From a virus (Duplodnaviria > Caudoviricetes): 63,393 bases of DNA. The translations under genes and the position numbers were made by a program. Location of the stretch: the IMG/VR virus record IMGVR_UViG_3300028197_000950, positions 1-63,393 of that record; one strand, given 5' to 3'. This document shows positions 10,729 to 41,069 of this stretch, piece after piece (the first letter of the stretch is position 1; every line of letters starts with the position of its first letter). The notes beneath the pieces were generated by a model. It saw nothing but the letters and a program-made list of their open reading frames with translations, made no database searches and was not told where the DNA came from.

Positions 10729-13700
10729 CTACTTCATTAACTCAACTAGCTTTTCTACTCTATCAGCTTCTAATTTTAAAGCCTTTATTTCGTCTTTGCT
10801 TAAACCTAAACTATCTAGTTTTCTAACTTGCTCAGCTTTATTTAGTTTCTTATACTTGTATTCTTCAATAGCTTTTTTATCTACTATATTTTTCTTTTTA
10901 CTATTTTTAGCTATTATTAAATCTATTTTAGCTTTCTCTGTTTTAGCATTTTTTATAGTATACTCTCCAAAACCTAGACTTTTTAACATTTTAACTTGCT
11001 GATCAGAAGTTAATTTCTTAATAGTATCATAGTCTTTTGATCCTTTAGCTTTTTTGTAATTATCTATTTTAGATTTAGCTTTAACCTCTGCTTTTTGTTC
11101 AGGCGTTAGATCAGCCGCTGTTTTAGGACTTTCTAATTGCCATTTAGGCCAACCACCCATCATAGCTACTCTTTGCCATATTTCATTGTCTTCATCTAAA
11201 GCTCCTTCAATGTTTTTTATCTTATACATAACTCTATCAAGAGGAACATTAGTTGTAGCAGAAACTACTTTAGCAGCAGCTTCATAAGCTGGGTTATCTA
11301 AAGAAAATCCTTTCTCAAATATTAATTCTCTACGTTTTTTAGAATCAAACTGCCAACCAGCTTGCTTCAGTTTAGATAACTTAGAGTATATAGGTGGTGA
11401 GAACCTAGTCACTTCCCATACAGAATCTACATACTCCGGTCGATCTCTTCCTGATCTTTCGTAAATATCCATTAAAAAGTTTTTAGCTACAGAAACAGCT
11501 GCTCCTCCAATACCTAAACCTCTTAGTAGAGAGTCTAGCATACCGTTAGCTACATTTAAATACTTCTTATTTTTAGCTTCTTCTTTTTCATCATCATCAT
11601 CTCCAAAACCTAAAGCAAATACAGCTTGTTGTAAAGCGTTGAATATTACATTTTGAACAAATCCATAATAAACTATTCTACTAACATGAGACTTAGCATC
11701 TCCTCTACCGTTAACTAAATCTTGTATAGCTCTTTTTTGTATCCTAGCATACTGCATAGGTGTATTAGCAAAAGCTAATATTAACCTACCAACATTACTA
11801 GATTGTTGTTGAGATATTCTACTAGGATCAGAAGACTGTTGAGACTCTTCAGCTACTTGTCTAAATTCTATAAGAGCTTGTTCCTTAGCTTCAGTTTCTG
11901 TCTTGCCTTGACGTACTAAATCTTTTATTCTATTTCTATAAAAAGTAGCACCACCAGAAGCTATAGCAAAGCTATCAGCGTATTGTGTAGGTAAGAAACC
12001 TTTTTGTAATAAATAATTAATAGCAGCTTTAGCCTTGTTCTTACTTGTTGCAGCAGCATCAGCTATTTCAGACTCTGATATATTAAGTTTTAAACCATTA
12101 CGTCTATCTAGTAAGTAGTCAGAGTTCATTAGCTCTTTAAAATCAGACCAGTATTGTTTTTGATTAGCAAAAGCTTTACCAGCTTGATAAGGGTTATTAA
12201 AACTCCAGTTAACAAAGTTTATAGAAGATATTGTTTGTAACACTGCTGATCTAGTGTTAAAAAACATTATAGTACCTATCGAACCATTAACATAGTCTAA
12301 TATTTGGTTTTCTATTTTACTACCGCTAGTTAACCTGTTCTTACCAGTCTTCATTCTAGTTAACATGTTTGTCAACGCGTCTACATATTTAGTACCATAT
12401 ATAGCTTCTAGCTTATTTAAATTCTCTTTAGAGTATATAGTGTCAATAGACTCTTGCCATTCGCTTAGATATTTAGATCTTTTCTCTGTGTTGATTAAAT
12501 TTATTAAATCAGTTGTTATAGTACCAACAAGCCAATTAGCATCTGGTTTAGAATAACCATCACCCTTAGTTATTTGTAATATTTGCTCAGAAAATTCTTT
12601 TAGTGTAGCGTCATTTTCAACAGTGTCATTTAATTGTTTTAAATCTCTTTTAGAAAGCCCAGGAACTTCATAACCCATACTTGTGAATAAGTGTACTCTA
12701 ACAGCTTGTTCATTAGTAAAACCACTGCTGTTCTTTTTTCTAAGGTTTGCAGGTATGTTTAATGATTTTTTTAATTGCTTAAAATCGTTCATTAAATTTA
12801 ATCTAGACGTAGATAAATTCTCTTGAGCTTTAGTATATTTATCTATTAAATTAGTTTTATACCAAGCCATTTGAGCATCTCCCTTGCTACCTTTTGATAA
12901 AGTAGGATATACTAAACCTAAAAAGTCTTCAGCAGAATAAGGTATAAAGAATTTAAAATTACCTTTACTTGCTCCTATAGTTTTAGCTTTAGCCGCAGAG
13001 TATTCTTTAAATGCGTCTACACCAGTAGTTTCCTCTAGTAGGTCATTAAATTCATCACTAAGCTTTTTACTTTCTTTAATTCTAGCTTGTTGAACTTTAG
13101 ATTTAACATCTATGACTGACATTACATCTCTAACAGCTTTAACATTTTGATAAGCATCATCTGCGAAGTAGAAGTCGTTATAACCTTCTGCAGCTTTATT
13201 AACCATCCACTTTGCTTTAGCAGCTCCTGTTGAGTCACCTAGTCCAGTTATATTCTCTAATGGTATATCTAAACCTTGGCTATCTAAAAATTCTTTTATA
13301 GCTACTTGAGCAGCAGGGTTTCTAGCTGTTAGCACAAATACATCTTGTGTGCCTCTAGCGTCTTGTATTTTCTTAGCTATATCTAAAAGTGGACCAGGCT
13401 TTCCTTTAGTTACTTTATTAAACTCTGAAAAATCAAATTCATATCCTTGTTCTAGTAATTGAGCTCCTTGTGTTGCAAACTGTTCAGCGTTTAATTTGCC
13501 TTCTGTTCCATCAGGTGCTGTAAATAAAACATCTGATTTAGTAGTTGCTAAAGTATCGTCAAAATCAAATACCCTAATTTTTTTAACTGGCTGATCTAGC
13601 GAATTAGCTAATTTTAATGCTTCATCGACAGTTGAAGCATAATTAATTATATCTTCATTAGTTTCAGTTTTACTAAACTTAACAACTTCGTTAGATAATT

Positions 13701-16700
13701 CTTTTATGTTTGACTCTTTAGCAGGGACTTTGGCTTCTAACATTTTAACAGCCTCTGTTTTCATTAAAGAAGAAACACTTGATGCACTGTCTAAAGTATA
13801 GTCACTTTTAGGAATATTTCTTAATTTACTTGGTAATACTCTTAAATTAACAGTTGTCATCATTACGCCGTCTTTATTCACTGAAGATTTACCTTTATTT
13901 ACTCTTAAAGTAAGATCAACATTACCTGTTAATTCTGGTAAAGGTAATCCTAAAGGGTTTTTACCCATAAAAAATAATCCACTACCTTGTAATTGTATAT
14001 AGCTAGTTGGAGGTACTTTATTTTCATAAATCTCCCTTACTGGAGTTATATCAAATTCAGCTATTTGAGTTATTGCTTTTTGAAGTCCTTCTCCTTTTAT
14101 TCCATCTGGATATTTTTCTTTTATTGCGGAGTATTTAGGTTTTAAATCAGCAACGCCTTCAGCATCTAACCCTTCACCTAGTTGTATATATATATCTGCA
14201 GGAAGTTTACCTGTTTTATCATATACATTTAAATCAGCACCTAATTCACCTGCTCTTTTTCTATAAGCTTTTAAAGCCTTATCAGCTTTTTCAAATAATT
14301 CTTTTCTTATTCTTTCTTTAAAACTATAGTTTTTCTTTTTAACATTGTTGTTAAAATCTATTAAACCATTTCTAAATCTTAGACCAACATCTCCGTATTG
14401 AGCAACTGCTAATTTAACTTCTACATTAAGAGCATTGTCAAATATTGTAGCTGCAAAATCTGATATTCCTTTTTTATTACCCCCAGCTTGACCTGAAACA
14501 TTAAAACCTTTTATTTTTAAAGCTTTTAATCTTTCTATAATTACATTTTCATAAGCAAATCCTTTATTTGTACCTATCTTGTTGTATTCAAGATTTATAG
14601 CCTCTTGAAGTGTTATCCCAGGGTTATTATCTACTATTTGTCCAACTCTTTTTACAAATGTTTTTTCTTGATTTTTATCTAAATCTAATCCATCTAGTTT
14701 TTTAGCAAATAATAGTCTAGGATCTTTTTGAGTTTTCTTAGCAGACATAGCTTTAGTCTGATCACTTTCACCTTTTTTATTTCTTATTTCAGGTAAAGCA
14801 TCTTTGAACATCTGTCTACCTAAAGACTCTGCTAATTTACCTTTTCTATTGCTAACAGTAGATGGTTTTTCTTTTGTAAAGAAATCTACAGTAGCACCTG
14901 CACCAGGATTTAATATGTCATAAAGCATAACACCTTGAGACTCATTTTCAACATAAGCTCTACCTGAGTCTCTATACTTTCTTATATCAGCTTGACTTGT
15001 TAAACGTCTATTAGGCTTAGTAAACATTCTAGGTTTACCTTGTTTCATTAAACCCTTGTCTAAGTCTATTAAGTATTTAATATCTAAATCTCTAATATTA
15101 TTATAATTATCTTTTATAAAGGTTTTGTAGTCTTGTCCTTTTAATATATTATCTTTAACCCAAGATTTAAGCTCTGTACCAGCTAATTGATCTAGTTTAG
15201 TTCTAAAGTTCTTAGCGTTGGCATCAGGAAGCTTGTTAGAGACGTTCTCTGACACTTTCTTAAAATCTTCGACTTGTTCGTTGTTTAAACCTTTTTGATC
15301 TCCTACAATTAAGTTTCTTCTAAATTGAGATTTTGGAGCAGCAGAAGCTTCGCCACCATCTATTCTATTTATAATATCTTGTTCTGCACTTTTATCTTCA
15401 ATATCAAAAGCTTGGCCTTCACTAGTTGGCTTATCTATACTACGAGCATTAGAATCTGGTCTTGTTGCATATTCTTTCTTAACATCTAATAAAGCTTTTT
15501 GAGCTATACCACCCATACCATTTTCACTTGCTTTTCCATAGATAAAGCTAAATAAACTACGTCTATTACCGTCAAGTTCTGGTTTGAAGTTTTTTAATGT
15601 TCTTATTTGTAAGTTTTCTTTTATTTTTCTATTAACTTCTTCCTTAACACTTGGACTTAAACTTTGTAAATTTCCATCTCTAGTTATTAATTGATTTATA
15701 TAACTATTAAAATTTGAATTATTTTCAATAGCATCAAAAGCATCTAAAGCAGCTTCGCTTTCTTTAAAATCATCGTTTGTTTTAAGATCTTCAGTAATAT
15801 TCTGATCAAAAGAGTTAGACATGGATTTAGTATCAACGCTTATAGGTTTAGCTGCAACCATTTTAGTATCTCTAGATTTTATATCTTCAGTAGTAGTTTC
15901 AGATTGCTTATTTATAGGTATTACTTTTGTGTCGTTTTCAGATGCTATTAAGTCTCCAGACTTTTTAATTATATCAGAAAACTTAACTTTACCTTTAGCT
16001 AGCTTTCTTTGTGATCTAGTTAACTTACCTCTTCCAGTATTTCTAATATAATCATCAAGAACTTCCATAACATTGTTCTCATTAATTTCTATTTCCATAC
16101 CTAAACCTTGAAATAATCTTCTTACTCCAGCTTGAATTTCACCACCAACAGTTGTGCCTTTTTTAAACTCACCTCTTTTCTTGAGTTGAGTATAATAAGT
16201 TAATATTTCTTCAGCTACATCAGCATCTGTGTAGTTTTCATCTGACCTATACTTGTCTAATTGTCTTTCTATTTTTCTTGCTGTCTCAGGATCTACCTCA
16301 GCCATTTGCTTTTTCAAAGCTTCCGCTATACCGAATACTACATTTTTATTTTTAGGATCGCTTAAAGCTATATCTAAAAAGTTATGTAAAGATTCATGTT
16401 CTAAAACACCTTTAGTTGCCGTTTTAGACATTAGTATTATGCCTTTGTCTTTTAAATAAACACCTTCTGGATCTAATAAATCTTCTTTATTTAAATTATA
16501 TTTTTTAGCTATTTCATCAACGTTTTCATCATCAAATACTTCTACTTTAGATTCGTTTAATAAATTATCAGCATCTTCTTTAGATATATCTTGATCTTTA
16601 GCTAAGTTTTTTATTTTCTGTAATGACACAATTTTTAGTTGCTTGTCAGTAAAATCTAGTTGCTCTTGCTCAGTTAACTCCTTAGATATTTCATTGTTAC

Positions 16701-19700
16701 TATCTGTAGTTATTTCTTGAATTTGCTTGTTATTATCTTCTATTTGATTTTTTATTCTAGCATTAGTGTTTGGCCCTAATTTTTTTGCTTCTACTTCTAG
16801 CTTTTCATTAGCCTCTAATAATTGAGCAACTTCCATTTGAGCTTTACCATTTATGTTTGGGTCTATTTTATTAAACCTACTAAATGCTTTATTCATTTCA
16901 AAAGCATCTTCATCAAACTGCTCTTGAGTATATATCTCGCCATTAACCTCTTGTCCTATTTGCTCTTTTATTTGTGTTAAAGCTACTGATAGATCTTCTG
17001 GAGATCTTAAAGTATTAGCAAGTTCTTCCATGTTTTTTTCAAACTGCTTTCTTTCAGCAAAAGAATTTTCAGCTTCGTAATCGCTTAATATTTGTTCACT
17101 ATTTATCATAGCTTGAAAACTACCACCTGCATTACCTGATAAAAAAGAAACACCAGCCATATGTTTCATTTCTTTTTTAAACTCACTTGAAGTGTAAGCA
17201 GGTAATTCAAAACTCAATTGATTTCCTGTTCCTTTGTTAAACATCTCAGTAATAAAGTAATCCGCGCCTGTTTGAATAGTTTCATCTAAAAGTTCATCTA
17301 TACCAGATCCAGTTACTTTACCAAACTTAGATAAAGCTTTAGCGCTTAAATCTCCTATTTTCTTGTTAACAGCTATTTGAATATCTTTTGCAGTAACATT
17401 ACCTGTCAAGTTCTTCATTACAGAATTAGTTACTCTACCTACTACTTTTTCAGTTATTTTAATATTACCTTTCATTATACCTGCAGTAACATAAGACAAA
17501 GCACCTTGCACAGTTGCTTTTGCTAAAGCATATCCTTGCCTAGAAGCTGGCGACCATATTTCATCAAATCTTTTCTTAGCTTCTGACCTGCTTAGTTCAG
17601 GGTGATCAGCTATAAATTCATTTTCTACTCTAACAGCATCAGCTTGTTCAGCGGCTAGAGTTCCAAAGAAATAACCGCCAGCTAAACCTGTTAATGGAGC
17701 ACCTATGACAGCACCGTACATTTGAGCAAAAGAATTTATAGTTCCACCAACAAGGCTTTGAGCAAATTCTTGACTGAACTTTTCATCATTACCACTTAGT
17801 TGTAGTTGATCTTTTATCGCTTTAATATTACTATCTATACTTGCATTTTCAAAAGCAAATCTCTGTTTGTAAGACTTGTACTGTCTATCATTTATACCAA
17901 AAGCTTTTTTAATGAAATCAGGAGATCCACTTGAATATATCTCATGTCCAAGATAGTTTATACCTCTAGCAAATAATTGAAAAGCTTGAACTCTACCTAC
18001 ACTTGTCTCCGCAACTTGACCCACTACAGTATTATATAACTCTCTTATATAACTTCCTTGTGCTTCATATTTTTCAGACATTTTTTCTAAGCGACCACTA
18101 AGCATTAAATTTGAAGCTGTATATTCTCCTTCTAAAGCTGTTAAAAAATCATTATCAGCAAGTAAACCATCAAACTCATCTTTTAACTTAGTAAAACCAC
18201 CAATTCCGGCATTGTACTCCTCTGTTAAAGATTCTATATTTGGTATTTTATCATCATAAAATTCTTTGTATTTAGAGGATATACTTTTTTCTTTTTCTAA
18301 GTTTTTATTATAAGTCTTTATAGAGTCTTTTTGATCTGACATGAAACCTTTTTCCCACTTTACATACTCTTTAGTTAATTGCTTTGCTAAATCTGGGTTA
18401 TTAGCTATCTCTTTCTTTAATTGATCTACCTTTTTACTTTGAACATTAGAACCATTGTCTATTTCTTCTTTAAGAATTTTGTTATCTTTTTCTATTAATC
18501 TTATTTCTTCATTTGATTTTATAAACTGTTTTCTTAATAAAGTTTTTTGTTTTGTAATATCTTCTGAAATCTTAGAAGTATCTAGTATTATTTTTGTTCT
18601 TTGTTGGATATTAGACTTTTGTTCGTTTATATTTCCTTTTATGAGATTAATTGTTTTCTTTTTTTCTTTTATTTCCTTGCTGTTATCAGCCTTAGCTCCA
18701 GGAGCAGTGCTGTTTGATTTTTTGTATTCACTTATGTTTTTATCTATAAAGTTTGTAATACCTTCAATGTCTTCTACTTTGTTTCCTCTTGCACCAAAAT
18801 CAGCCTTATAAGAAAGACCTTTTCTTTCCATTAATTTATTAAAGTCATCTGTTTCATAAATTACTTCTCCAAAAGAATTTCTTTTTGGCATCTGATCGGC
18901 AGATATACCATTAGCTTCTAAAGTTTTTCTATAATCTACACTACCGTCATCTTTAAATACAGGGTTTTTATAAACATAAACGTCACTACCATCTCTAATA
19001 GCGCCAATACCATTATTTATATACTTTTCATTAATATTATCTCTTACAGCATCAGATTCTAGATTTTCAAACTCTCTTATATTTTTTCCTAGTTTCTTTT
19101 TTATACCAAATATTCCTGTCTGGCCATAGTTTTTCTCTGTTTTAATTTCATAGCCATTATCAGTATTTTTAAAATAACCACCTTTACCAGTCCAGTCCGT
19201 AGGTTTTGGCTTTTCTTGTTTTTCTTCTATGGAACTTAACATATTGTTATTACGATATGCTTGAACAAGTTTTGATTGTTTATTATTTTTGTTTTCTTTA
19301 AGCTCTTCTACCCTTTCTGGAGTTGTCTCAGGGTTGTTTAATTCTTGATCAATTACATTTATCTCATTTATAATTTCTGAAGGATTAGCAGGTATAAGTG
19401 AGCTTTCCGCGGTAACAACTAATTCTGGTAAAGTTTCATCTTTAGGATCTCTTATAGTAACTTGATCTGTAGTTACAACATCATCTTTTTTACCAAACAA
19501 TTCTTCTTCTTGCTCAAAAGTTAGGTATATTGGAGTATCTCCTTGAATTTCCTTGGCTGTATTAAAGTTGAAAAAGCCATTTTTTTTATCTTGCTTGTAG
19601 TAAGCTATATAATAATTTCCTTTAGAAGTTTCAACTGTAGATTCTTTATCTTCACCTGGCCTGTTTATTCTTTTTTTAGTTTCTGGCTCAGTATAATTAT

Positions 19701-20226
19701 AGTTTATTTTCTTTAATGAAACTAAGTTACCTGATCTTCTATCTGTATCTTCTTCTAGCCTAGTTAAAGGCTCAGATTGATTTTTTAATTTATCCGCGTC
19801 TTCAGCTATGTTAGATAAATCTACGTTTTTTCTATTAAATGAGTTTTGTATTTTAGTTTTTTCTTCATCATTTAAACTAGTTAAATCATAAGTTTCTATA
19901 ACATCGTATTTTCCTTCTGGTATATTTTCAGAGTTTTTTGGTACTTTGATTTTTCCCTTAGACTTTTTTTCTTCTTTAATATCTTTTTTACCTAAGTTTT
20001 CAGGATCATTTTCATTTTTTTGAGAGTCCAAAGAAGTATCTTCCGAGCTGGATTCCGTACTGTCTTGACTTTCCGCCGCTACAGGTGCAGCTTTCTCCGC
20101 AACGACTTTTGGCTTTTCCACCTCTGCAGGTTTATTGTCAATATCCCACTGGTTAAGTAGTTCTAAAGCTTCTGCTTTTTTTACTCCTTTATCTTTTAAA
20201 GATTGTACGTATTCTTTTTTAGTCAT
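10729..20226 (-). CDS. Giant (3165 aa) polyvalent, probably virion-ejected protein with zincin, PD-(D/E)XK and HAD-like domains
   Basis: HESLH followed by AEE; GFAYE...SDF...VEVK; VFDFDDTL...VLTAR...K...YFADD; last gene of the tail/ejection module. Confidence 0.75.
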   Translation of the reverse strand: MTKKEYVQSLKDKGVKKAEALELLNQWDIDNKPAEVEKPKVVAEKAAPVAAESQDSTESSSEDTSLDSQKNENDPENLGKKDIKEEKKSKGKIKVPKNSENIPEGKYDVIETYDLTSLNDEEKTKIQNSFNRKNVDLSNIAEDADKLKNQSEPLTRLEEDTDRRSGNLVSLKKINYNYTEPETKKRINRPGEDKESTVETSKGNYYIAYYKQDKKNGFFNFNTAKEIQGDTPIYLTFEQEEELFGKKDDVVTTDQVTIRDPKDETLPELVVTAESSLIPANPSEIINEINVIDQELNNPETTPERVEELKENKNNKQSKLVQAYRNNNMLSSIEEKQEKPKPTDWTGKGGYFKNTDNGYEIKTEKNYGQTGIFGIKKKLGKNIREFENLESDAVRDNINEKYINNGIGAIRDGSDVYVYKNPVFKDDGSVDYRKTLEANGISADQMPKRNSFGEVIYETDDFNKLMERKGLSYKADFGARGNKVEDIEGITNFIDKNISEYKKSNSTAPGAKADNSKEIKEKKKTINLIKGNINEQKSNIQQRTKIILDTSKISEDITKQKTLLRKQFIKSNEEIRLIEKDNKILKEEIDNGSNVQSKKVDQLKKEIANNPDLAKQLTKEYVKWEKGFMSDQKDSIKTYNKNLEKEKSISSKYKEFYDDKIPNIESLTEEYNAGIGGFTKLKDEFDGLLADNDFLTALEGEYTASNLMLSGRLEKMSEKYEAQGSYIRELYNTVVGQVAETSVGRVQAFQLFARGINYLGHEIYSSGSPDFIKKAFGINDRQYKSYKQRFAFENASIDSNIKAIKDQLQLSGNDEKFSQEFAQSLVGGTINSFAQMYGAVIGAPLTGLAGGYFFGTLAAEQADAVRVENEFIADHPELSRSEAKKRFDEIWSPASRQGYALAKATVQGALSYVTAGIMKGNIKITEKVVGRVTNSVMKNLTGNVTAKDIQIAVNKKIGDLSAKALSKFGKVTGSGIDELLDETIQTGADYFITEMFNKGTGNQLSFELPAYTSSEFKKEMKHMAGVSFLSGNAGGSFQAMINSEQILSDYEAENSFAERKQFEKNMEELANTLRSPEDLSVALTQIKEQIGQEVNGEIYTQEQFDEDAFEMNKAFSRFNKIDPNINGKAQMEVAQLLEANEKLEVEAKKLGPNTNARIKNQIEDNNKQIQEITTDSNNEISKELTEQEQLDFTDKQLKIVSLQKIKNLAKDQDISKEDADNLLNESKVEVFDDENVDEIAKKYNLNKEDLLDPEGVYLKDKGIILMSKTATKGVLEHESLHNFLDIALSDPKNKNVVFGIAEALKKQMAEVDPETARKIERQLDKYRSDENYTDADVAEEILTYYTQLKKRGEFKKGTTVGGEIQAGVRRLFQGLGMEIEINENNVMEVLDDYIRNTGRGKLTRSQRKLAKGKVKFSDIIKKSGDLIASENDTKVIPINKQSETTTEDIKSRDTKMVAAKPISVDTKSMSNSFDQNITEDLKTNDDFKESEAALDAFDAIENNSNFNSYINQLITRDGNLQSLSPSVKEEVNRKIKENLQIRTLKNFKPELDGNRRSLFSFIYGKASENGMGGIAQKALLDVKKEYATRPDSNARSIDKPTSEGQAFDIEDKSAEQDIINRIDGGEASAAPKSQFRRNLIVGDQKGLNNEQVEDFKKVSENVSNKLPDANAKNFRTKLDQLAGTELKSWVKDNILKGQDYKTFIKDNYNNIRDLDIKYLIDLDKGLMKQGKPRMFTKPNRRLTSQADIRKYRDSGRAYVENESQGVMLYDILNPGAGATVDFFTKEKPSTVSNRKGKLAESLGRQMFKDALPEIRNKKGESDQTKAMSAKKTQKDPRLLFAKKLDGLDLDKNQEKTFVKRVGQIVDNNPGITLQEAINLEYNKIGTNKGFAYENVIIERLKALKIKGFNVSGQAGGNKKGISDFAATIFDNALNVEVKLAVAQYGDVGLRFRNGLIDFNNNVKKKNYSFKERIRKELFEKADKALKAYRKRAGELGADLNVYDKTGKLPADIYIQLGEGLDAEGVADLKPKYSAIKEKYPDGIKGEGLQKAITQIAEFDITPVREIYENKVPPTSYIQLQGSGLFFMGKNPLGLPLPELTGNVDLTLRVNKGKSSVNKDGVMMTTVNLRVLPSKLRNIPKSDYTLDSASSVSSLMKTEAVKMLEAKVPAKESNIKELSNEVVKFSKTETNEDIINYASTVDEALKLANSLDQPVKKIRVFDFDDTLATTKSDVLFTAPDGTEGKLNAEQFATQGAQLLEQGYEFDFSEFNKVTKGKPGPLLDIAKKIQDARGTQDVFVLTARNPAAQVAIKEFLDSQGLDIPLENITGLGDSTGAAKAKWMVNKAAEGYNDFYFADDAYQNVKAVRDVMSVIDVKSKVQQARIKESKKLSDEFNDLLEETTGVDAFKEYSAAKAKTIGASKGNFKFFIPYSAEDFLGLVYPTLSKGSKGDAQMAWYKTNLIDKYTKAQENLSTSRLNLMNDFKQLKKSLNIPANLRKKNSSGFTNEQAVRVHLFTSMGYEVPGLSKRDLKQLNDTVENDATLKEFSEQILQITKGDGYSKPDANWLVGTITTDLINLINTEKRSKYLSEWQESIDTIYSKENLNKLEAIYGTKYVDALTNMLTRMKTGKNRLTSGSKIENQILDYVNGSIGTIMFFNTRSAVLQTISSINFVNWSFNNPYQAGKAFANQKQYWSDFKELMNSDYLLDRRNGLKLNISESEIADAAATSKNKAKAAINYLLQKGFLPTQYADSFAIASGGATFYRNRIKDLVRQGKTETEAKEQALIEFRQVAEESQQSSDPSRISQQQSSNVGRLILAFANTPMQYARIQKRAIQDLVNGRGDAKSHVSRIVYYGFVQNVIFNALQQAVFALGFGDDDDEKEEAKNKKYLNVANGMLDSLLRGLGIGGAAVSVAKNFLMDIYERSGRDRPEYVDSVWEVTRFSPPIYSKLSKLKQAGWQFDSKKRRELIFEKGFSLDNPAYEAAAKVVSATTNVPLDRVMYKIKNIEGALDEDNEIWQRVAMMGGWPKWQLESPKTAADLTPEQKAEVKAKSKIDNYKKAKGSKDYDTIKKLTSDQQVKMLKSLGFGEYTIKNAKTEKAKIDLIIAKNSKKKNIVDKKAIEEYKYKKLNKAEQVRKLDSLGLSKDEIKALKLEADRVEKLVELMK

Positions 20227-25097: not shown

Positions 25098-28000
25098 TTA
25101 ATTACCCCTTATTTGGCTATTAACCACACTTGAACCGCTAGCTGGAGAAATACCCTCTTCAACAGGTTCTAATGGAACGTCTGGAGCAACTGGTAATACG
25201 CTTGCTCCAGCGGCTATTCTACTATTTAATTCAGTTACTAACCCAGAAGTTGATGTTTCCCAATATATTTCAAGTTTAGAAACTCTTGGAACAATTTCTG
25301 CTATAGAAAACCCATAATCTTCATTAAGACTACCAGGCAAGCCAAATACCTCTTGATTAGCACCAGATACTATTATAGCAGGTGGATTGTTTCCACTTTG
25401 CTGTAAACCTACAACTTCTGAATCAATAGAATCATCACTAAGTCCTAAGTCTAAAACTTTTCCATAGCCTTGAATACTAGCTGTAGAAGCTCCAAAATAA
25501 AAATTACCAGGATAAACACTACCTCTACTAAAGAAAGTTGGAGTTCCAGTTAGGTATTGAAAATCTGAACCAACTCTAATATTTAGCCTAGTATCACTAG
25601 TGCCAAATTGGTTTTGCTCAGGTGCTACCGCTCCTAAATCAGCAGGTATCTTATTTACGTTGTCAGCTAATAAAGAAGTTATATACGTAGTAAGATAGTT
25701 ATTTATACCACCTGCGTTTATTCTAGCGCCACTAGCAATAGTTTGAAAACCTCCTAAATAAGCGTTGTAATATTCTTCTGCTAATTGCTTTACTACTATT
25801 TTATAACTATACCAACCTAATTTGTTTTCTTGAGTGTAAACAGTTAAGTCAGATGAGTTGGGTATACTTAAGGTTTTGTTTACTGTTATAGTCTTGTTTG
25901 TAGAGTCAATAGAATTTACAGCAGCAGTAAATAAGTTTGCTGTGCTAGATTGAGGTCCAGTAACTATATCTCCTACAGATATTTGATCAAAATCATTATT
26001 AACAGGTTGTACATTTAGTTGAGTAGCGTTAACTGTAGAATTTATTTTTCCACTAAAAGAAGAGCCGTTACCAACAACACATAGCTTATCTCCAATTTCA
26101 TAACCACTTCCACCATCAGTAACTACACCTTGCGCAACCAGTAGTGGAGCACTGAAAGCTCCAGAATTTAGTACCGTTATTTGAAGTTTAGCACCTGATC
26201 CGTTGCCAGAATATCCTGTTTGATAAACTAAATCTAAAGGAGCTGTTCCACCACCATTAACAAGAGTAAATCCAGTACCCTCTTCTAAAGTATTATAAGG
26301 CCCAGGTTCTCCAGTGTTAACCCAATAAACAGTGTCTGGAAACCCTTTTAAAGACGGTAAGGATCCGTCACTAATAGATATCACATTACTACTAATAACC
26401 TCAGCATTTGTCTTAAATTTATAACTAACAGCTTTGTATATACCTGGATATCCTTGAGGATTATCCTTTAAAGACGGTATACCTAAACCAGAAAAAAGCA
26501 CTTTTATAGAATTACCTTTCCATAATTCTGGTCTTATTGAATCAGTTCCAGACCTACCTGTAGAATATGGACTATAAAAAGTAGAACCATCAAAAGTAGT
26601 ATTTCCACCATCTTGGGACTGTTGGAATTGTATTTCATTTGATAATATAACATCAGACTGTCTTCCGTATCTATCAGCTAAAACTATACCTACTTGATAT
26701 GTTCTGTTTTGTTTTACTGTATGGATAGGATATGCCATTGAACAATTAGAGCTGTAATTACTAGTGCCTATAATGTTAAAATTAGATGAACTTCTAGCTT
26801 CGTATTTTTCACTAACAGATATTGAGTAATCTAAGCCAGTAGGTGGAGAATGTTTATCTATAAAATTGCCATATATTACTCTATTGCCTGAAATAGATTG
26901 AGACTTTGCTCTAATAGGCACTTTATCAAAAACTCTTTCTACTTCTCTTGAAGGCAGTGTTCTAAAAGGGTTTTTTGATTGATAATCATATATAAGATTT
27001 CTAGATGCACCTTGTGTAGGGTCAAAATCAGAAACTTTAAATTCTTCTAAAACTTGAATTGAAAGAGCATTAGATTCTCTATATATTAATTGTACTTCAG
27101 TTACTTTTAATGCGGTTTCTAATTGAGCTTGTGTATACGGTAATGGAATTGTTATTCTTACTTGATCTACTTCGTTCTCAAAAAAATCTAATATTGTGCT
27201 ATTAGAAATTGCATCTATTACACCTTTGCTAGGGTCAGCCCTAATATCAGTTCCTAAATCATATCTTGTAGGAATATAACCTTTATTTCTAGGTATAAAA
27301 GCTGGTTGAGTAAATGGAGATATTAAAGAGAACTCCCCGTCATCAAATTTAAATCTATAAGCAAATCTAACAAATTTATCAGTTAAAAACTCATCATCAC
27401 CAGGCCAACTACTTATGTAATTAGGATTAGGCCATGCTAATGTAACTTTAGTGCCCTCATCAAATGCGAAATCGGGGCCAGATATAGCTCTTGGAGGAGA
27501 AATGCCTAATAATTTATAGTTTGGATTTACACCAGGGACTGCTGGAACGTCTGTTACACTAGTTATTATTGTTTCAAAACCATTAAATGTATCTGTTATT
27601 TTCATCTTTGTGAAAACTCCATCAGGATTTGATAGCCCCGAACCATTTGGAAAGGCATCACCGGCAATTATTGAAATTTCATTTGCAGTTGCTGGATTTG
27701 GATATGCAGCACATCGCGAAAAAACACTAGGTGCAAGATATTCGTCTGTTACATTTTTTGAAGAAGTATCTACAAAACAAAGTGACGTTTTTCCAATTAA
27801 ATTTATTGCACTTGTTAAACGAAAACTATAAGGAGATACATAACTTACTGTTCTTATATAAACGTCTGGATAACCGACAACTGCCATACCAGGTATTAAG
27901 TTTTCAGTACTATCATTAGTTGTAATTGTTAAAACAGTACCACTAGAAGTTATATTATCTATACATACTTCATTCCATAAAATTGGAGCTTGATAAGGAT

Positions 28001-28565
28001 AGTATTTAGCAACTGATATTTGATCCTCTGTAGTATAGTATCCAGGAGAGAAAGGGTTAACAGTTGGGGTATCTTGGTTTACATTTATTTTTCTAGGTTG
28101 ATTCCTATCGTCTGTCCAGAATAAAAGTTTTTCTAATAAATCTATGCCCGTTACAGGGTGTGTTTTAGAGAAATTTAAAAAACTACCTTCAACAAGTATT
28201 TTAAATCTAAGCAGTGGATCTGTTTGTTTATTATCAAACTTTAATATATAACAAGAAGCACCATAAGGAGCTACGTTATCTAATGTGCTTACAGACGTAT
28301 CAACATAGTTTGTTGCAATAAAATAAGCTGATTCTGAACTTTCATCTATTGTATGGCCAATTATTTCTAAATTTGGAATAGATCCTAAGCCCCAATCACC
28401 TAAAAATGTATTTCCTAATATATTTTCTAAAGCGCCAACGTCTTCTCCCTCTGACCTACTTACCTGAACATTTTCCGCGTCTCTATACTCACCTTTAGAA
28501 AGCAGTCTGTCATCAAGATCTTTATTCATCTTGGATTTTATAAAAGTATTCCTTGCGTTAGCCAT
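25098..28565 (-). CDS. Large tail stabilisation/muzzle-like protein with inserted modules
   Basis: KMNKDLDDRL...GEYRDAEN, LLFWTDDRNQPRKIN, VRFAYRFKF and GNRVIYGNF. Confidence 0.7.
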   Translation of the reverse strand: MANARNTFIKSKMNKDLDDRLLSKGEYRDAENVQVSRSEGEDVGALENILGNTFLGDWGLGSIPNLEIIGHTIDESSESAYFIATNYVDTSVSTLDNVAPYGASCYILKFDNKQTDPLLRFKILVEGSFLNFSKTHPVTGIDLLEKLLFWTDDRNQPRKINVNQDTPTVNPFSPGYYTTEDQISVAKYYPYQAPILWNEVCIDNITSSGTVLTITTNDSTENLIPGMAVVGYPDVYIRTVSYVSPYSFRLTSAINLIGKTSLCFVDTSSKNVTDEYLAPSVFSRCAAYPNPATANEISIIAGDAFPNGSGLSNPDGVFTKMKITDTFNGFETIITSVTDVPAVPGVNPNYKLLGISPPRAISGPDFAFDEGTKVTLAWPNPNYISSWPGDDEFLTDKFVRFAYRFKFDDGEFSLISPFTQPAFIPRNKGYIPTRYDLGTDIRADPSKGVIDAISNSTILDFFENEVDQVRITIPLPYTQAQLETALKVTEVQLIYRESNALSIQVLEEFKVSDFDPTQGASRNLIYDYQSKNPFRTLPSREVERVFDKVPIRAKSQSISGNRVIYGNFIDKHSPPTGLDYSISVSEKYEARSSSNFNIIGTSNYSSNCSMAYPIHTVKQNRTYQVGIVLADRYGRQSDVILSNEIQFQQSQDGGNTTFDGSTFYSPYSTGRSGTDSIRPELWKGNSIKVLFSGLGIPSLKDNPQGYPGIYKAVSYKFKTNAEVISSNVISISDGSLPSLKGFPDTVYWVNTGEPGPYNTLEEGTGFTLVNGGGTAPLDLVYQTGYSGNGSGAKLQITVLNSGAFSAPLLVAQGVVTDGGSGYEIGDKLCVVGNGSSFSGKINSTVNATQLNVQPVNNDFDQISVGDIVTGPQSSTANLFTAAVNSIDSTNKTITVNKTLSIPNSSDLTVYTQENKLGWYSYKIVVKQLAEEYYNAYLGGFQTIASGARINAGGINNYLTTYITSLLADNVNKIPADLGAVAPEQNQFGTSDTRLNIRVGSDFQYLTGTPTFFSRGSVYPGNFYFGASTASIQGYGKVLDLGLSDDSIDSEVVGLQQSGNNPPAIIVSGANQEVFGLPGSLNEDYGFSIAEIVPRVSKLEIYWETSTSGLVTELNSRIAAGASVLPVAPDVPLEPVEEGISPASGSSVVNSQIRGN

Positions 28566-29727: not shown

Positions 29728-30480
29728 TTATCTTTTAGTATTTGCTTCATTAGCGGCTGAAAGCTGTGTAGCTGATTGAACTATTTGTGGATCTCTTATT
29801 ATGACTCCAGCATATTTTAGTATTTCTATTATAACATCTGTTTGTTGACTATCACTTATTTCAAAATTAACAGAACCAGTACTTGGTATAACAGGTGTTA
29901 ATGAAAAACCAGGTGTTCCATCCCAAACATAATTTCCAAGAGTAGTGTTAACCCCATATCCCCAAACAACGTCGTTAGGTTTTCTAATGTAATTAAATGT
30001 TACATCGTTATTTGTATATGTATTTGTAACTGTTGGAAATACAGTTAATTTATCTTGCTTGTATTTAGCTATAGGAAAATTTGACGTAGGAGCTGTTAAT
30101 GGTGATAATATCTGTTCAGTATATTCTCTAGCGCTTACTATTTCTATTTCTGGAGAATTAAAACCTTTATTGTAATTTACTGAACCAAATCTATGTAAGT
30201 CTATTGGTTGTGTGTAAACATTGGCTGAGTGAGAAGATGCATCGCTGTTTTTTATAAAAACTTGAAACTCTTCCATTGTATGATCCATTCTGGAAGCAAA
30301 CTCTACATTTGTTTTCGGCATACGTGTATACTGATTATAGTCTTCAAAAAACTTTTCAAATATCTCTAATTGAACTTGAGTTGCTAATTGATTAAACTCA
30401 TATGGAGTTAAATATCCTCTTTGCTCTTTATTAAGAATACTTAATACTGTTGTGTATACCGTATTTACATTTATTGCCAT
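29728..30480 (-). CDS. Head-tail adaptor/ring protein
   Basis: NKEQRGYLTPYEFN...YIRKP pattern; position after the capsid module. Confidence 0.55.
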   Translation of the reverse strand: MAINVNTVYTTVLSILNKEQRGYLTPYEFNQLATQVQLEIFEKFFEDYNQYTRMPKTNVEFASRMDHTMEEFQVFIKNSDASSHSANVYTQPIDLHRFGSVNYNKGFNSPEIEIVSAREYTEQILSPLTAPTSNFPIAKYKQDKLTVFPTVTNTYTNNDVTFNYIRKPNDVVWGYGVNTTLGNYVWDGTPGFSLTPVIPSTGSVNFEISDSQQTDVIIEILKYAGVIIRDPQIVQSATQLSAANEANTKR

Positions 30481-30499
30481 TTTAATTCTTTATTTAAAA

Positions 30500-30980
30500 A
30501 AAAGATACGTCCCTTCTAGCAGCCCGTGCTTAACGCCGGTAAATCCCTCATTCTTTTACTCATTCTTTTCCCATTTTCCTACTCAGTGTCCCAAAAATTC
30601 AATTCATTTTATATTTTAATAGCCTTTCATCAGTGTTCTTCATTTCAAATCCTTTTCAAATCCTTTTCAAATCCTTTGTTCTGTCCCTTTATTTGTCAAT
30701 TATAAATAATCAACTACACGGTACCACTAGAAGTTAGTACCCTTTTCCACATAGTAATATAACCTATCCGCAATAACTCCAGGATAAATTACAACCGTCA
30801 CTCTATCTGTTTCGATTACAACATATGGAATTTATGCATAAATTTATCATATTGCTTCTAATATCATTCAATGCGTAAGTTCTATTTCCAAATCACAACA
30901 TACCCATCGTGTGGGTATATCGCAGTTGATCCTTAATAAAACATACTAAAGAATGAAAAATTATATTATTACCATGCTTA
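30500..30980 (-). ncRNA. Candidate structured non-coding RNA (about 470 nt)
   Basis: No sense-strand ORF over about 16 codons; class B motif directly upstream; G-U-supported helices on the minus strand; purine-rich repeats; ends in a U-tract. Confidence 0.55.
30643..30675 (-). repeat. Three perfect 11-nt tandem repeats (AGGATTTGAAA on minus)
   Basis: tttcaaatcct at 30643, 30654 and 30665. Confidence 0.95.
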
Positions 30981-30988
30981 ATTATAAT

Positions 30989-31013
30989 ATTACTTGTTTA
31001 TTCTATTTATTAC
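30989..31013 (-). promoter_or_regulatory. Class B promoter motif GTAATA-N14-GTAAT
   Basis: Immediately after the stop of 31018-31800, pointing into the non-coding segment. Confidence 0.6.
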
Positions 31014-31017
31014 TTGT

Positions 31018-31800
31018 TTATTTCATTTTTTTCTCTATTGATCTAAAAACTTCTAAACCTTCATCTGTTTTAAACCAAGCAGCTAAAGCTGAGTATGGGT
31101 TTTCATCAAAAGGTACTGTCATTAGTTTTCTATCATTAGATGCCCAAGAGAATGATCTATTGTCTCCGCTAAGTTTTATAATGCTTTCTTCAACAGCTAC
31201 AATTCCAATATTTCTTAATTGTACGTTTTCATCATTAGCTAAATCTATAAATAATTCAGGGCTTTGCTTAGCAAATAGTAATATATCTCTTTTTATTTCT
31301 TTAGAACTCATACTAGTAACTGAAGATCCTAGTTCTACTCTTAATATAGCCTCTGCAAAATCAGTATCCATACTAGAAGCAGCATTCATAGCTAATAATT
31401 GAGTCTCTAAACTGTCAACTTGATCTATAGCTTGAACCGCCTTGTCATGTTCTTCAAATATAATACCTTTATGAGGGTGTTTAGCCAAGAATTCTTGTAA
31501 ATTTCTTTTTTCTTTTTTAACTGATAAAATACCAGAGTCAAAAACAATATGCTTCAATGTAACTTGACCATTTTGCTCATCTACAAATATACTGTTTTGA
31601 TTTGTTGCGTATCTTAGTTCTCTTTCATAACCTTTATCTTTATCAAACCAAACTAAAGGAAATCTTCTAGTATGTTTGCTGGGTATTGTATGAGTTAAAG
31701 GTTGGCCTTTTATTATGTAATAATTTCTATCTTTATATTCCCAAGTGTCTTTTTTAACCTCTTGCTTGGGAGCAGGAGCTTTTATTTCTTTTGTTTTCAT
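31018..31800 (-). CDS. Conserved head-module protein of unknown function
   Basis: 260-aa ORF, RELRYATNQ.SIFVDEQ, with a (TTATA)n leader. Confidence 0.6.
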   Translation of the reverse strand: MKTKEIKAPAPKQEVKKDTWEYKDRNYYIIKGQPLTHTIPSKHTRRFPLVWFDKDKGYERELRYATNQNSIFVDEQNGQVTLKHIVFDSGILSVKKEKRNLQEFLAKHPHKGIIFEEHDKAVQAIDQVDSLETQLLAMNAASSMDTDFAEAILRVELGSSVTSMSSKEIKRDILLFAKQSPELFIDLANDENVQLRNIGIVAVEESIIKLSGDNRSFSWASNDRKLMTVPFDENPYSALAAWFKTDEGLEVFRSIEKKMK

Positions 31801-31822
31801 AATATAATATAATATAATAATT

Positions 31823-31850
31823 AAAAAAGATCCTACCTAAGTAGGACCTT
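31823..31850 (-). terminator. Rho-independent terminator after the capsid and small paralog genes
   Basis: Minus strand AAGGTCCTAC-TTAG-GTAGGATC-TTTTTT. Confidence 0.8.
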
Positions 31851-31870
31851 GTATTTGTTTTAGTTACGTA

Positions 31871-32146
31871 CTAAATTGCTTCAGCAGTAGCTGAGCTAAC
31901 TAGTTGTGAAAATTCTATATCTAATGTTGAACCAGAAGATCCATTAAGAATGTTTACACCCTTAATAATAGCATTAACATCGTCTTGATTTAAAGAGACG
32001 TTATCATCTTCAAGCTTGAGCTGGTATCCACTACCATATTCTATAACAATTTCACCGCCATCATCTCTAACTGAAACAACATCTTCGGTTGAAATTAAAT
32101 TTACCGGCAACGTGTTAGAATCAAATTTATATTTTAAATATCCCAT
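31871..32146 (-). CDS. Small capsid-associated protein, paralog 2
   Basis: Similar to 32160-32426 (MGY start, DVVSV/DIVDV, I..GV/AV.IxGxSG). Confidence 0.6.
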   Translation of the reverse strand: MGYLKYKFDSNTLPVNLISTEDVVSVRDDGGEIVIEYGSGYQLKLEDDNVSLNQDDVNAIIKGVNILNGSSGSTLDIEFSQLVSSATAEAI

Positions 32147-32159
32147 AATTTATTTTTTT

Positions 32160-32426
32160 TTATATTCTTGCTGTTGAAATACTTGTTATAGGCGCACTTA
32201 ACTCATCTGGAGCAATACCTTCTCCTGAAGCTCCTTCAATTTTTAAAACAGCGTTCACTATCTTAATAGAATCTTTACTTCCAATACTTGAAAAATTAAC
32301 AGTACATTTAGTTCCAGTTGTGTAGCTAAATATAATAGTATTACCGGATTGAGTAACATCTACTATATCATCCGCAGGTAATAGATCAAAAGTTCTATCA
32401 GCCTTGAATAATTTTACATATCCCAT
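32160..32426 (-). CDS. Small capsid-associated protein, paralog 1
   Basis: Directly downstream of the major capsid gene. Confidence 0.6.
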   Translation of the reverse strand: MGYVKLFKADRTFDLLPADDIVDVTQSGNTIIFSYTTGTKCTVNFSSIGSKDSIKIVNAVLKIEGASGEGIAPDELSAPITSISTARI

Positions 32427-32451
32427 ATTTTCTTATTTTTTAAATGTTAAT

Positions 32452-32480
32452 AAAGTGGAGAGCGTTAACCCTCCACATTT
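32452..32480 (-). terminator. Hairpin after the major capsid gene (leaky terminator or stabiliser)
   Basis: GTGGAG(GG)-TTAACG-(CT)CTCCAC-TTT. Confidence 0.6.
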
Positions 32481-32489
32481 ATATAATAA

Positions 32490-40561: not shown

Positions 40562-40785
40562 TAATACTTAAGATCGTATTCTACAGAAACAGCCATATTA
40601 GAATTAAACTTTTTCCAAGGTAAAACCTCATCGTTTTTAGTTATAAAAATGTTATACGATTGATCTTTGTCTTTGAAAATAATATCACTAATTATATGAC
40701 CACCATAAACTTCTTGTCCAGTAGCATAATGCATAGCTTCATTCTTATAATCAGCCCCTATACTAATTTTCCTTATCTTCGACAT
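40561..40785 (-). CDS. Hypothetical protein
   Basis: TAATG-coupled ORF. Confidence 0.6.
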   Translation of the reverse strand: MSKIRKISIGADYKNEAMHYATGQEVYGGHIISDIIFKDKDQSYNIFITKNDEVLPWKKFNSNMAVSVEYDLKY

Positions 40786-41011
40786 CTTCTTTTATCTCAG
40801 TGTAAGAACCATTTTCTAAGTTTATATTAACTCTTCCGTATTCTTTTTCTAAAATTTCTTTAAAATCTTCTATATCTCTATTAGCAGCAGATATATCATG
40901 TAATAACCCATGCTTTTGAGCTTCTAAAACACCTACGTTGTGTAGCATCTCAGCGAGTTGAGTTTGCTGTTCTTTAATTAATTTTAAATCTTCTTCTTTT
41001 ATTTTATTCAT
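40763..41011 (-). CDS. Small coiled-coil protein
   Basis: LEKEYGRVNINLENG C-terminus; follows a class B motif. Confidence 0.6.
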   Translation of the reverse strand: MNKIKEEDLKLIKEQQTQLAEMLHNVGVLEAQKHGLLHDISAANRDIEDFKEILEKEYGRVNINLENGSYTEIKEDVEDKEN

Positions 41012-41043
41012 TTTATTTGATTTTATTTGATTGTTAATTATAT

Positions 41044-41069
41044 ATTTACTTGTTTTAAATTTTATTTAC
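41044..41069 (-). promoter_or_regulatory. Class B promoter motif GTAAAT-N14-GTAAAT upstream of the packaging/head operon
   Basis: Intergenic, with the same 14-nt spacer. Confidence 0.6.

Follow-up and report, generated by a model that had tools for sequence, protein, structure and literature searches.

A structured RNA of ~484 nt is encoded on the minus strand of the virus record IMGVR_UViG_3300028197_000950 (Caudoviricetes), which was analyzed over its full 63,393 nucleotides and is called the window here. The RNA lies between the gene of a 260-aa protein (p260) and the gene of a virion structural protein, which a preliminary description of this DNA, made from its letters alone, had called the adaptor. 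It belongs to a real, undescribed family of structured phage RNAs that range in size from 300 to 484 nt; the family is small, and its carriers are some of the marine phages of the Flavobacteria type. The preliminary description had proposed a structured minus-strand noncoding RNA of ~470-480 nt at this place, and this is backed by folds, by covariation and by contigs from RNA libraries. The RNA is part of a cassette that is absent from 77 of 83 related loci, and in RNA libraries it is present above the contig depth of its neighbors. Our preferred reading is tentative: the element would be an accessory 'RNA moron', a terminator-replacing cassette that yields a trans-acting RNA, which in turn titrates a factor of the host or of a rival. 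Taken as a whole, this statement falls somewhat short of being probable.

Fold, covariation and searches for known families

Members of the family were found in eight contigs including the window, which represent seven distinct sequences (L051 and L102 are the same). Three sequence types can be told apart: A (window, L004), B (L051/L102, L053, L101) and C (L037, L041). Minimum-free-energy folds were computed separately for each of the eight sequences, over the stretch that begins with AAGCAU and closes with the U-run. All folds share a two-domain plan with a helix P1, a short A-rich linker and a second helix P2. P1 is formed by the 5' end (GCAURGUA) and an internal UACUAUG in 8/8 folds. P2 is formed by the segment after the linker and the 3' end and reaches into the U-run, again in 8/8 folds, with the A-run of the linker pairing with the U-run. 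In the window P2 comprises ~30 bp (30716-30748 with 30497-30529). Its basal helix (30736-30748 with 30497-30510) adjoins the eight U, so that a stem stands directly before the U-run, as it does in all eight members. The preliminary description had seen a U-tract at the end of the RNA, and this is the run of eight T at 30496-30503. Thus the locus, the upstream motif, the start AAGCAURGUA, P1 to UACUAUG, and P2 to the 3' end and U-run are shared by 8/8 sequences.

The two domains of the window differ in their degree of folding, with a mean pairing probability of 0.42 in the 3' domain vs 0.65 in the 5' domain. The 3' domain is 69% purine and carries tandem repeats of 11 nt (3.2 copies, 30643-30677) and 12 nt (1.9 copies, 30547-30569), which agrees with the purine-rich, repetitive 3' half described before. 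Among the single elements named in the preliminary description, the hairpins at ~30895-30923 and 30759-30792 and the 16-nt palindrome at 30829-30844 are present in the minimum-free-energy fold. A further hairpin at 30720-30741 is not, and it is lost in L004; its bases belong to the 5' strand of P2. The 'GC-richer hairpin' had to be redrawn, its 3' half being part of P2 in the fold. A 10-bp helix had been proposed to close the 5' half (30921-30930 with 30709-30718). These strands are complementary, yet the helix is absent from the fold, and both strands are deleted or rewritten in L004. The helix cannot nest with the family-wide P1 and P2, since it would cross P1, and it was therefore replaced by them. 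A pseudoknot with this helix may possibly form. Roughly at this position, L004 contains another 7-bp complement (UACAACA/UGUUGUA), with estimated chance odds of ~0.04, and types B and C are inconsistent in this respect.

The stability of the folds was compared with that of shuffled sequences. For the whole gap between the two genes, the z-score was -3.43 on the minus strand (0/100 shuffles reached the observed value) and -2.29 on the plus strand. For the RNA proper the values were -4.29 (0/100 shuffles) and -1.31, respectively. In six sequences the sense z-scores were -4.3 (window), -9.0, -5.3, -4.8, -3.7 and -6.2, with 0/100 shuffles each, while the antisense values in the same order were -1.3, -5.0, -1.6, -2.4, -2.9 and -0.7. 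A fold no better than shuffles, which the preliminary description had named as a result that would speak against an RNA, was thus found in none of the six. Furthermore, the P1 mismatches of type A are G-U pairs on the minus strand only. The asymmetry between sense and antisense folds, together with these mismatches, indicates that the RNA is made from the gene strand, which is the minus strand in the window, as had been suggested before. We also scored the architecture as such, that is, pairing of the 5' end inside the RNA and of the next 40 nt with the last 34 nt. The scores ranged from -38 to -53 kcal/mol, vs means of -8 to -16 for the shuffles, and 0/200 dinucleotide shuffles reached them in each of five sequences.

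Compensatory changes were analyzed in two sets. In types B and C together (five sequences), 14 of 59 consensus pairs have changes on both sides, and 92.2% of the cells are paired, vs 37.5-54.5% after sliding of the partners by 1-3 columns. In four of five measures, the observed value was reached by 0/500 shuffles; the comparison favors the structure, since this had been obtained from the very sequences tested. In type A, the window's own fold was placed on a MAFFT alignment of the window and L004. Here, 91.2% of the cells are paired vs 39.6-46.6% after sliding, and in L004 alone 103 of 128 cells are paired. Seven double changes were counted vs 0-4 after sliding, a comparison for which the shuffle control is weak with two sequences (53/500). 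The helices of the 5' domain (1-9) are kept with 87.5-100% of cells paired. P2 is 89% paired, with six one-sided and three double changes, the other departures lying beside indels. Pairing is poorly preserved in the inner helices of the 3' domain (70-87%). L004's own fold has a 28-bp P2 at the same place with partly different sequence; the helices differ as GGUAC/GUAUC against GCAUG/CGUGC and as CCGUG/CACGG against CAAGG/CCUUG. RNAalifold misplaced P1 and P2 on this alignment owing to the indels, and its output was set aside. Covariation, which the preliminary description had proposed to look for, is therefore present both within types B and C and between the window and L004.

The RNA was searched for known families. 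With Rfam 15, positions 30496-30979 gave no match inside the RNA at E up to 10, and the whole window gave 0 matches at gathering scores. Likewise, no match was found inside the RNAs of L004, L051, L037 and L101 at E up to 1. Thus there is no Rfam match to GOLLD, ROOL, HEARO, OLE, tmRNA, RNase P, group I/II introns, riboswitches, ribozymes, pRNA, ToxI or CRISPR repeats, in line with the earlier failure to assign the RNA to a known class. ARAGORN reported 0 tRNA or tmRNA genes in the 63.4-kb record. Matches to snoRNA, FTX and Phage_DGR models (E 4.6-9.2) lie outside the RNA, and the capsid gene is the site of a CRISPR-DR47-like match (E 0.031) in L051 and L101; both were taken as chance. The 3' domain also contains a hammerhead-like CUGAUGA, which L004 does not share and for which Rfam gives no match. 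As a separate observation, L051 has a weak RsmY-like Rfam match at 1710-1832 (E 0.048; 23.9 bits, with gathering at 57), where a small open reading frame (ORF) upstream of p260 ends; the match is probably due to chance. The RNA contains no conserved ORF, and none of its frames matches Pfam or PHROGs, so that the decayed gene considered before finds no counterpart here. From the ATG in P1, L004 has an open frame of 5 codons and the window one of 12 codons, and the open frames of types B and C that contain this ATG lie in different reading frames. A literature search found no paper on noncoding RNAs of Cellulophaga or Flavobacteria phages, with subscription journals and supplements outside its scope.

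Library contigs and the cassette among related phages

Parts of the window are contained in 20 public runs from 14 studies, four of which (X6, X7, X8 and X18) were compared, all as contigs. In the metatranscriptome X6, a contig of 931 nt that is identical to the window covers 30511-31441 at a depth of 163. Contigs of the same strain had a depth of 2.9 in the adaptor gene (30025-30301) and of 6.9 in the 5' part of p260 (31571-31735). Positions 30302-30510 and 31442-31570 are without an X6 contig and were not used as evidence. In the metatranscriptome X18, which comes from another study, contigs on the RNA cover 30533-30690 at depth 109 and 30662-30968 at depth 90. The flank contigs listed (adaptor gene; 31018-31131) have depths of 4-13, and a contig with a doubtful joint in p260 has a depth of 123. 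The X18 contigs on the RNA carry loose ends that are unmatched to the window. One of them runs 10 letters past 30968 and ends 2 nt upstream of AAGCAU, right after the motif. The X18 variant also differs in repeat copy number, with 11-nt deletions at 30561 and 30643, and it has an extra 17-nt hairpin at the same spot as L004. Toward the 3' end, the RNA-library contigs stop at 30511 (X6) and near 30520 (X18), and the DNA contig of X8 crosses these positions. The stops are a weak hint of a 3' end, as contigs cannot show true ends. Together, the contigs give a good hint, though not a proof, that the RNA is abundant in two metatranscriptome studies.

In the DNA runs X7 and X8 the RNA region has a depth of 4.3-5. 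DNA contigs cross both junctions of the gap (X7, 30571-31086; X8, 29898-30769). These contigs come from other studies. As both junctions are spanned, the insert is not an assembly artefact, and the concern about misassembly that the preliminary description had raised is answered.

The same site was compared in the best 80 of 586 confirmed adaptor-encoding viral relatives and in three GenBank phages, 83 loci in total. Homologues of p260 lie directly upstream of the adaptor gene in 83/83 loci. In 77 of them the two genes are adjacent, with a spacer of only 55-89 nt, which settles the earlier question whether relatives have merely a short spacer here. These spacers contain a stop codon within one motif copy (AACAAGTGATTATA), a GC hairpin, a T-run and then AAAAATATTAAAATG, and by this layout the short spacer is a plain terminator. 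The simple terminator (e.g. in L005-L036 and in Flavobacterium phage elemoE, MW202828) resembles the RNA in its site, the upstream motif, the T-run, AAAAATATTAAAATG and the stem against the U-run. In contrast to this hairpin of ~16-18 nt, the RNA has a 30-bp helix around ~186 nt, preceded by a domain of 230 nt that stands apart and by another copy of the motif. Long ORF-poor gaps are present in five of the 83 loci (L004, L037, L041, L051, L053), to which the window is additional. The one remaining locus, of Maribacter phage Panino (L002, 8172-9462), has five small annotated ORFs at the same site, which is thus an insertion hot spot for protein and RNA cargo.

Further members were sought by sequence, as had been proposed. 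The gap had no blastn match in 50,697 phage records. Pattern scans yielded two further carriers, L101 and L102; exact-pattern scans of viral and metagenome contigs gave the L004 contig, L101 and L102 as the sole additions. Several candidates from these scans were rejected. L085 and L087-L094 show no similarity to the gap past the pattern seed. L095, L103, L104 and L106-L110 are chance matches in coding sequence or are without p260 and adaptor homologues. L105 is a small Rep-encoding virus of the ssDNA type, whose stem-loop fits the pattern by accident.

The upstream edge of the gap contains AAACAAGTAATA without mismatch exactly twice, 20 nt apart (30988-30999 and 31008-31019, minus strand), which extends the motif that the preliminary description had noticed at the start of the gap. 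The additional copy is restricted to RNA-bearing loci and is present in all eight carriers. In each of them the second copy is followed by TATAA(T/A/C)-T and then by AAGCAURGUA. A motif-like AAACAAGTAAATATATAATTAAC at 41042-41053 (minus strand) lies 42 nt upstream of an 82-aa ORF (40763-41011), the first ORF of the packaging/structural block. The genome has few copies of this motif, which is a candidate for a late promoter. It is plausible that the RNA has its own promoter. This is suggested by the doubling of the motif at RNA loci only, by its likeness to the motif at 41053 and by the X18 contig that starts after the motif.

Between the window and L004, the flanking genes are 98-99% identical at the DNA level and the RNA is 75% identical with many indels. 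L051 and L053 show the opposite pattern, with an RNA 95% identical between flanks of 77%. In a quick p260 tree (midpoint root), the six RNA-bearing rows stand at at least four separate places, each beside short-spacer kin, and at least four changes are needed to explain the RNA loci. As judged from these comparisons, the history of the cassette is uncoupled from that of its flanks. In a sense, the 'acquired insert' considered in the preliminary description was therefore right. Three spots are hypervariable when the window is compared with L004: the RNA, a cassette of small ORFs that separates the capsid gene from p260, and part of an 1155-aa tail protein. The place of the RNA among these spots suggests a role in host interaction.

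The two other spots have features of their own. The stretch between capsid gene and p260 (31856-32487) holds two small paralogous ORFs of 88 and 91 aa, both starting with MGY. L004 has a different sequence there with one ORF of 101 aa, making this a second hypervariable cassette. The gene of the tail protein (25098-28565) drops from ~98% to 50-70% DNA identity with L004 after the first ~35 codons (from ~28460 down), a divergence pattern typical of a presumptive host-range determinant. A 16-nt sequence (TAACTTCTAGTGGTAC) in the 5' strand of P2 (30721-30736) is repeated exactly and in direct orientation at 27937-27952, both on the minus strand, with an estimated chance expectation of ~0.02-0.05. 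The second copy lies on the coding strand of the tail protein gene, in the part that diverges from L004. The repeat could be a recombination footprint or a site that can pair with the 3' strand of P2.

Proposed role and alternative explanations

As an 'RNA moron', the cassette would consist of an extra promoter-like motif, a two-domain minus-strand RNA of ~484 nt and a built-in terminator. The second motif copy would act as the promoter of the RNA. P1 would tie the 5' end to the internal UACUAUG and thereby close a compact, hairpin-rich 5' domain. P2 and the U-run would stop transcription, formerly the task of the ancestral hairpin, and insulate the tail genes from upstream transcription. Because P2 runs into the U-run, it would both stop transcription and bury the 3' end, and the pairing of both ends should make the RNA stable and let it accumulate. 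The 3' domain, loosely folded, rich in purines and repeats and held out on P2, may bind or titrate a protein or RNA of the host or of a competitor. Such titration could serve host takeover or counter-defense. A wider form of this idea is that marine podophages of the Flavobacteria type trade terminator-born 'RNA morons', in which the P1/P2 frame displays a fast-changing decoy domain against a host defense or RNA-binding factor. The divergent alleles in 99% identical phages would then be the trace of an RNA arms race. We consider this wider form unlikely.

Several observations weigh against the preferred reading. P2 is unlike a standard intrinsic terminator, as it encloses ~186 nt, and a simple consensus scan (loop 3-8) made no call. 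A purine-rich 3' domain is not common to the whole family, type C having 49% purine there. The tandem repeats are absent from L004, including the 11-nt repeat, the core of which (GGAUUUGAA on the RNA, 30643-30677) we presume to be complementary to a common tRNA T-arm sequence. Antisense k-mer matches of the RNA in the phage genome are no more frequent than those of shuffles. The X6 contig includes 423 nt of p260, and its signal may partly represent the 3' end of p260 mRNA. In general, contigs show neither strand nor true ends, and a single depth per contig is a poor measure of expression. Finally, the covariance model R1, built from types B and C, gave no significant match to type A (best E 0.88-0.9 in the window). 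The claim of one family therefore rests on the locus, the motif, the P1 sequence, the architecture and short shared patches.

The abundant RNA may also be a terminated leader acting in cis. Formation of P2 and the U-run would then decide between a stop and read-through into the adaptor gene, and a factor on the 3' domain, or Q-like or put-like antitermination, would tune head:tail expression. The RNA is indeed placed exactly between the promoter-like motif and the next start codon, the terminator-like helix ends 15 nt before the ATG, and relatives have a plain terminator at the same place. The depth of downstream contigs is far lower in both RNA libraries. A parallel is phage lambda, which without Q makes a short terminated transcript from its late promoter, ending at tR'. 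In the 3' domain of types B and C, UUUUACUAUG occurs a second time, and the 5' end could pair with this copy in place of the first; however, type A lacks the alternative partner, L053 carries a mutated one, and no conserved antiterminator was found. Moreover, 77/83 relatives manage without the RNA, which is thus not needed for basic control. Long helices at both ends fit a stable product better than a short-lived leader, and allele swapping among near-identical phages would be unusual for a housekeeping regulator. We regard a leader or attenuator as rather improbable. We are similarly doubtful that the RNA is an overgrown terminator or selfish insert without a function of its own, although its place and U-run are those of the ancestral terminator, its distribution is patchy, and its 3' domain has a poorly conserved interior and a variable number of repeats. 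In this case the hairpin would have expanded by insertion and recombination, its structure would be kept just for termination and protection of mRNA 3' ends, and the signal in the RNA libraries would be a stable 3' fragment of p260 mRNA, in keeping with the X6 contig, which begins inside p260 and continues through the RNA. Yet compensatory changes keep 5'-domain helices that termination does not need, P1 and the start of the RNA are conserved across three otherwise unalignable types, and a 60-nt core is 97% identical within an RNA of 75% identity. The 95% identical cassette between 77% identical flanks in L051 and L053 suggests selection on the cassette. The doubling of the upstream motif at RNA-bearing loci only and the end of the X18 contig 2 nt upstream of AAGCAU also speak against this reading.

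Two further explanations carry little weight. The RNA is large, ornate, phage-borne, sporadic and apparently abundant, and GOLLD and ROOL, which share these traits, form RNA-only complexes (PMC12286853). Copies of the RNA might similarly join by loop-loop contacts, e.g. through the self-complementary UGCA loop of the palindrome hairpin (30829-30844), which lies within the best conserved core. However, such a palindrome is estimated to occur about twice per genome by chance and has no counterpart in types B and C, no Rfam model matches, and tRNA genes are absent nearby; self-assembly is therefore very improbable. It is at least as hard to believe that the gap contains no RNA gene at all and is a decayed protein gene, a DNA-level element (an origin, a packaging site or a protein-binding array formed by the 11-nt repeats) or an artefact of assembly. 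A DNA element would be in keeping with the short tandem repeats, which have a period of 11 nt, and with the 20-nt motif present in duplicate, and a stop-to-stop frame of 34 aa in the window and 53 aa in L004 shows conservative V/I and Y/F changes. But the repeats are missing in L004, and cumulative GC skew has no turn here. The longest sense frame common to the window and L004 has 8 non-synonymous vs 1 synonymous change, is followed by a frameshift and has no family match. Selection on an RNA is indicated by mismatches that are G-U only and by the difference between sense and antisense folds, and independent DNA contigs of X7 and X8 span both junctions.

To our knowledge, few large structured phage RNAs are known (GOLLD, ROOL and a handful of uncharacterized abundant transcripts), and their roles are unknown. 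The sizes of GOLLD/ROOL RNAs are ~580 and 800 nt. They are described as large structured RNAs of phages and prophages that are sporadic, abundant in lytic growth and without a known role (PMC7567579; PMC12286853). They resemble the RNA in size class, structure, phage carriage and sporadic occurrence. The family studied here differs in its length of 300-484 nt, its lack of a covariance-model match and its putative built-in terminator helix. It also lacks the tRNA-gene neighbors that are frequent, though not obligatory, for GOLLD and ROOL, none being found within the 63.4-kb record. For ICP1 (an ncRNA of ~800 nt) and phage K (long ncRNAs), abundant transcripts that come from ORF-less gaps and have no known role are also reported (PMC7567579, PMC9241854). 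Like our apparently abundant RNA, such a transcript arises in the one large ORF-less space of a lytic phage. ICP1 and phage K belong to other hosts and phage groups. Precedents for an accessory RNA unit are the anti-sRNAs AsxR and AgvB at moron sites of lambdoid prophages, which are 51-60 nt long, bind Hfq and titrate another RNA (PMC4104026). They too are accessory units among conserved late genes, adjacent to a late promoter, with their own terminator and with conserved and variable parts; at 300-484 nt the RNA is far from their size.

Classical morons encode proteins, whereas the cargo of this cassette is an RNA, and in this point it departs from the definition of a moron. It is moron-like in being inserted between otherwise adjacent late genes, in ending with a terminator-like signal of its own and in its separate history. 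The leader of the lambda late promoter and the put RNA of HK022 offer another comparison, with a promoter and a terminated noncoding transcript just upstream of late genes. In contrast to these, no Q-like protein or put-like element was identified here, and the RNA is optional among relatives and far larger. Like phi29 pRNA, it is a structured podovirus RNA linked to virion genes, but it has no Rfam match, and its absence from 77/83 relatives means that it cannot be an essential packaging part like pRNA. The preliminary description had also named an antitoxin mimic. Repeats of ToxI-like type III antitoxins measure roughly 35 nt or more and are bound by the toxin endonuclease. The repeats found here are of 11-12 nt in 1.9-3.2 copies and absent from L004, and this idea was dropped for the misfit in size. 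Comparison and swap experiments are made straightforward by the clear, simple frame of the family, by natural alleles whose changes compensate each other, by a plain terminator as the defined ancestral state and by close relatives free of the RNA. If the RNA is indeed a decoy, it would represent an RNA-based accessory module beside the known protein morons, in an abundant marine virus group.

Gene context in the window

The window is a complete viral record, and its capsid protein is 41-50% identical to those of Flavobacterium, Cellulophaga and Maribacter podophages. Minus-strand genes follow each other nearly without gaps from ~57000 down to 10729. The largest ORF-free stretch of this arm (10729-57000) is 30481-31017 with 537 nt; the second-largest has 70 nt when ORFs of at least 40 aa are counted, or 333 nt with a limit of 60 aa. 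A single large gene-free gap had been noted before, and these lengths bear it out. GC skew of the plus strand falls to -0.51 in the gap, which corresponds to a G-rich minus strand. The features of the locus are given in Table 1.

Table 1. Features of the RNA and of the adjoining genes in the window
Feature	Positions	Strand	Remarks
RNA, ~484 nt, AAGCAU to end of U-run	30496-30979	minus	limits from family conservation
P1, 5' strand (GCAUGGUAAU)	30968-30977	minus	pairs with 30749-30758
P1, 3' strand (AUUACUAUGU)	30749-30758	minus	contains the family-wide UACUAUG
5' domain, closed by P1	30759-30967	minus	hairpins 30895-30923, 30829-30844 (palindrome), 30759-30792
Conserved core of 5' domain	30793-30852	minus	58/60 identical to L004 (97%)
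P2, 5' strand: A-run and GGGUACU..CUUCUAGUGGUACCGUGU	30716-30748	minus	compensatory changes vs L004
3' domain, closed by P2	30530-30715	minus	tandem repeats inside
P2, 3' strand, entering U-run (30496-30503)	30497-30529	minus	putative intrinsic terminator
p260 gene, 260 aa, function unknown	31018-31800	minus	PHROG phrog_34748 (unknown function), E 1.4e-30
Virion structural protein ('adaptor'), 250 aa	29728-30480	minus	PHROG phrog_14543, E 1.9e-25
Motif copy 1 (AAACAAGTAATA)	31008-31019	minus	overlaps p260 stop codon; copy common to all relatives
Motif copy 2 (30988-30999), then TATAAT (30981-30986)	30981-30999	minus	putative RNA promoter

Some minor observations concern the neighboring genes. 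Terminator-like hairpins are located on the minus strand at 32455-32476, after the capsid gene, and at 31827-31850, just before p260. The first of these has a TTAACG loop, as in the spacer terminators of relatives. In ~25 related loci (among L037-L064), the adaptor homologue is matched in two pieces that span ~1000-1120 nt, not 750, and these matches imply a putative insertion of ~300 nt between residues 189 and 202. L042, L073 and L078 have two tandem adaptor-like matches ~1.3 kb apart. The structural arm ends with a single ORF of 3165 aa (10729-20226, minus strand).

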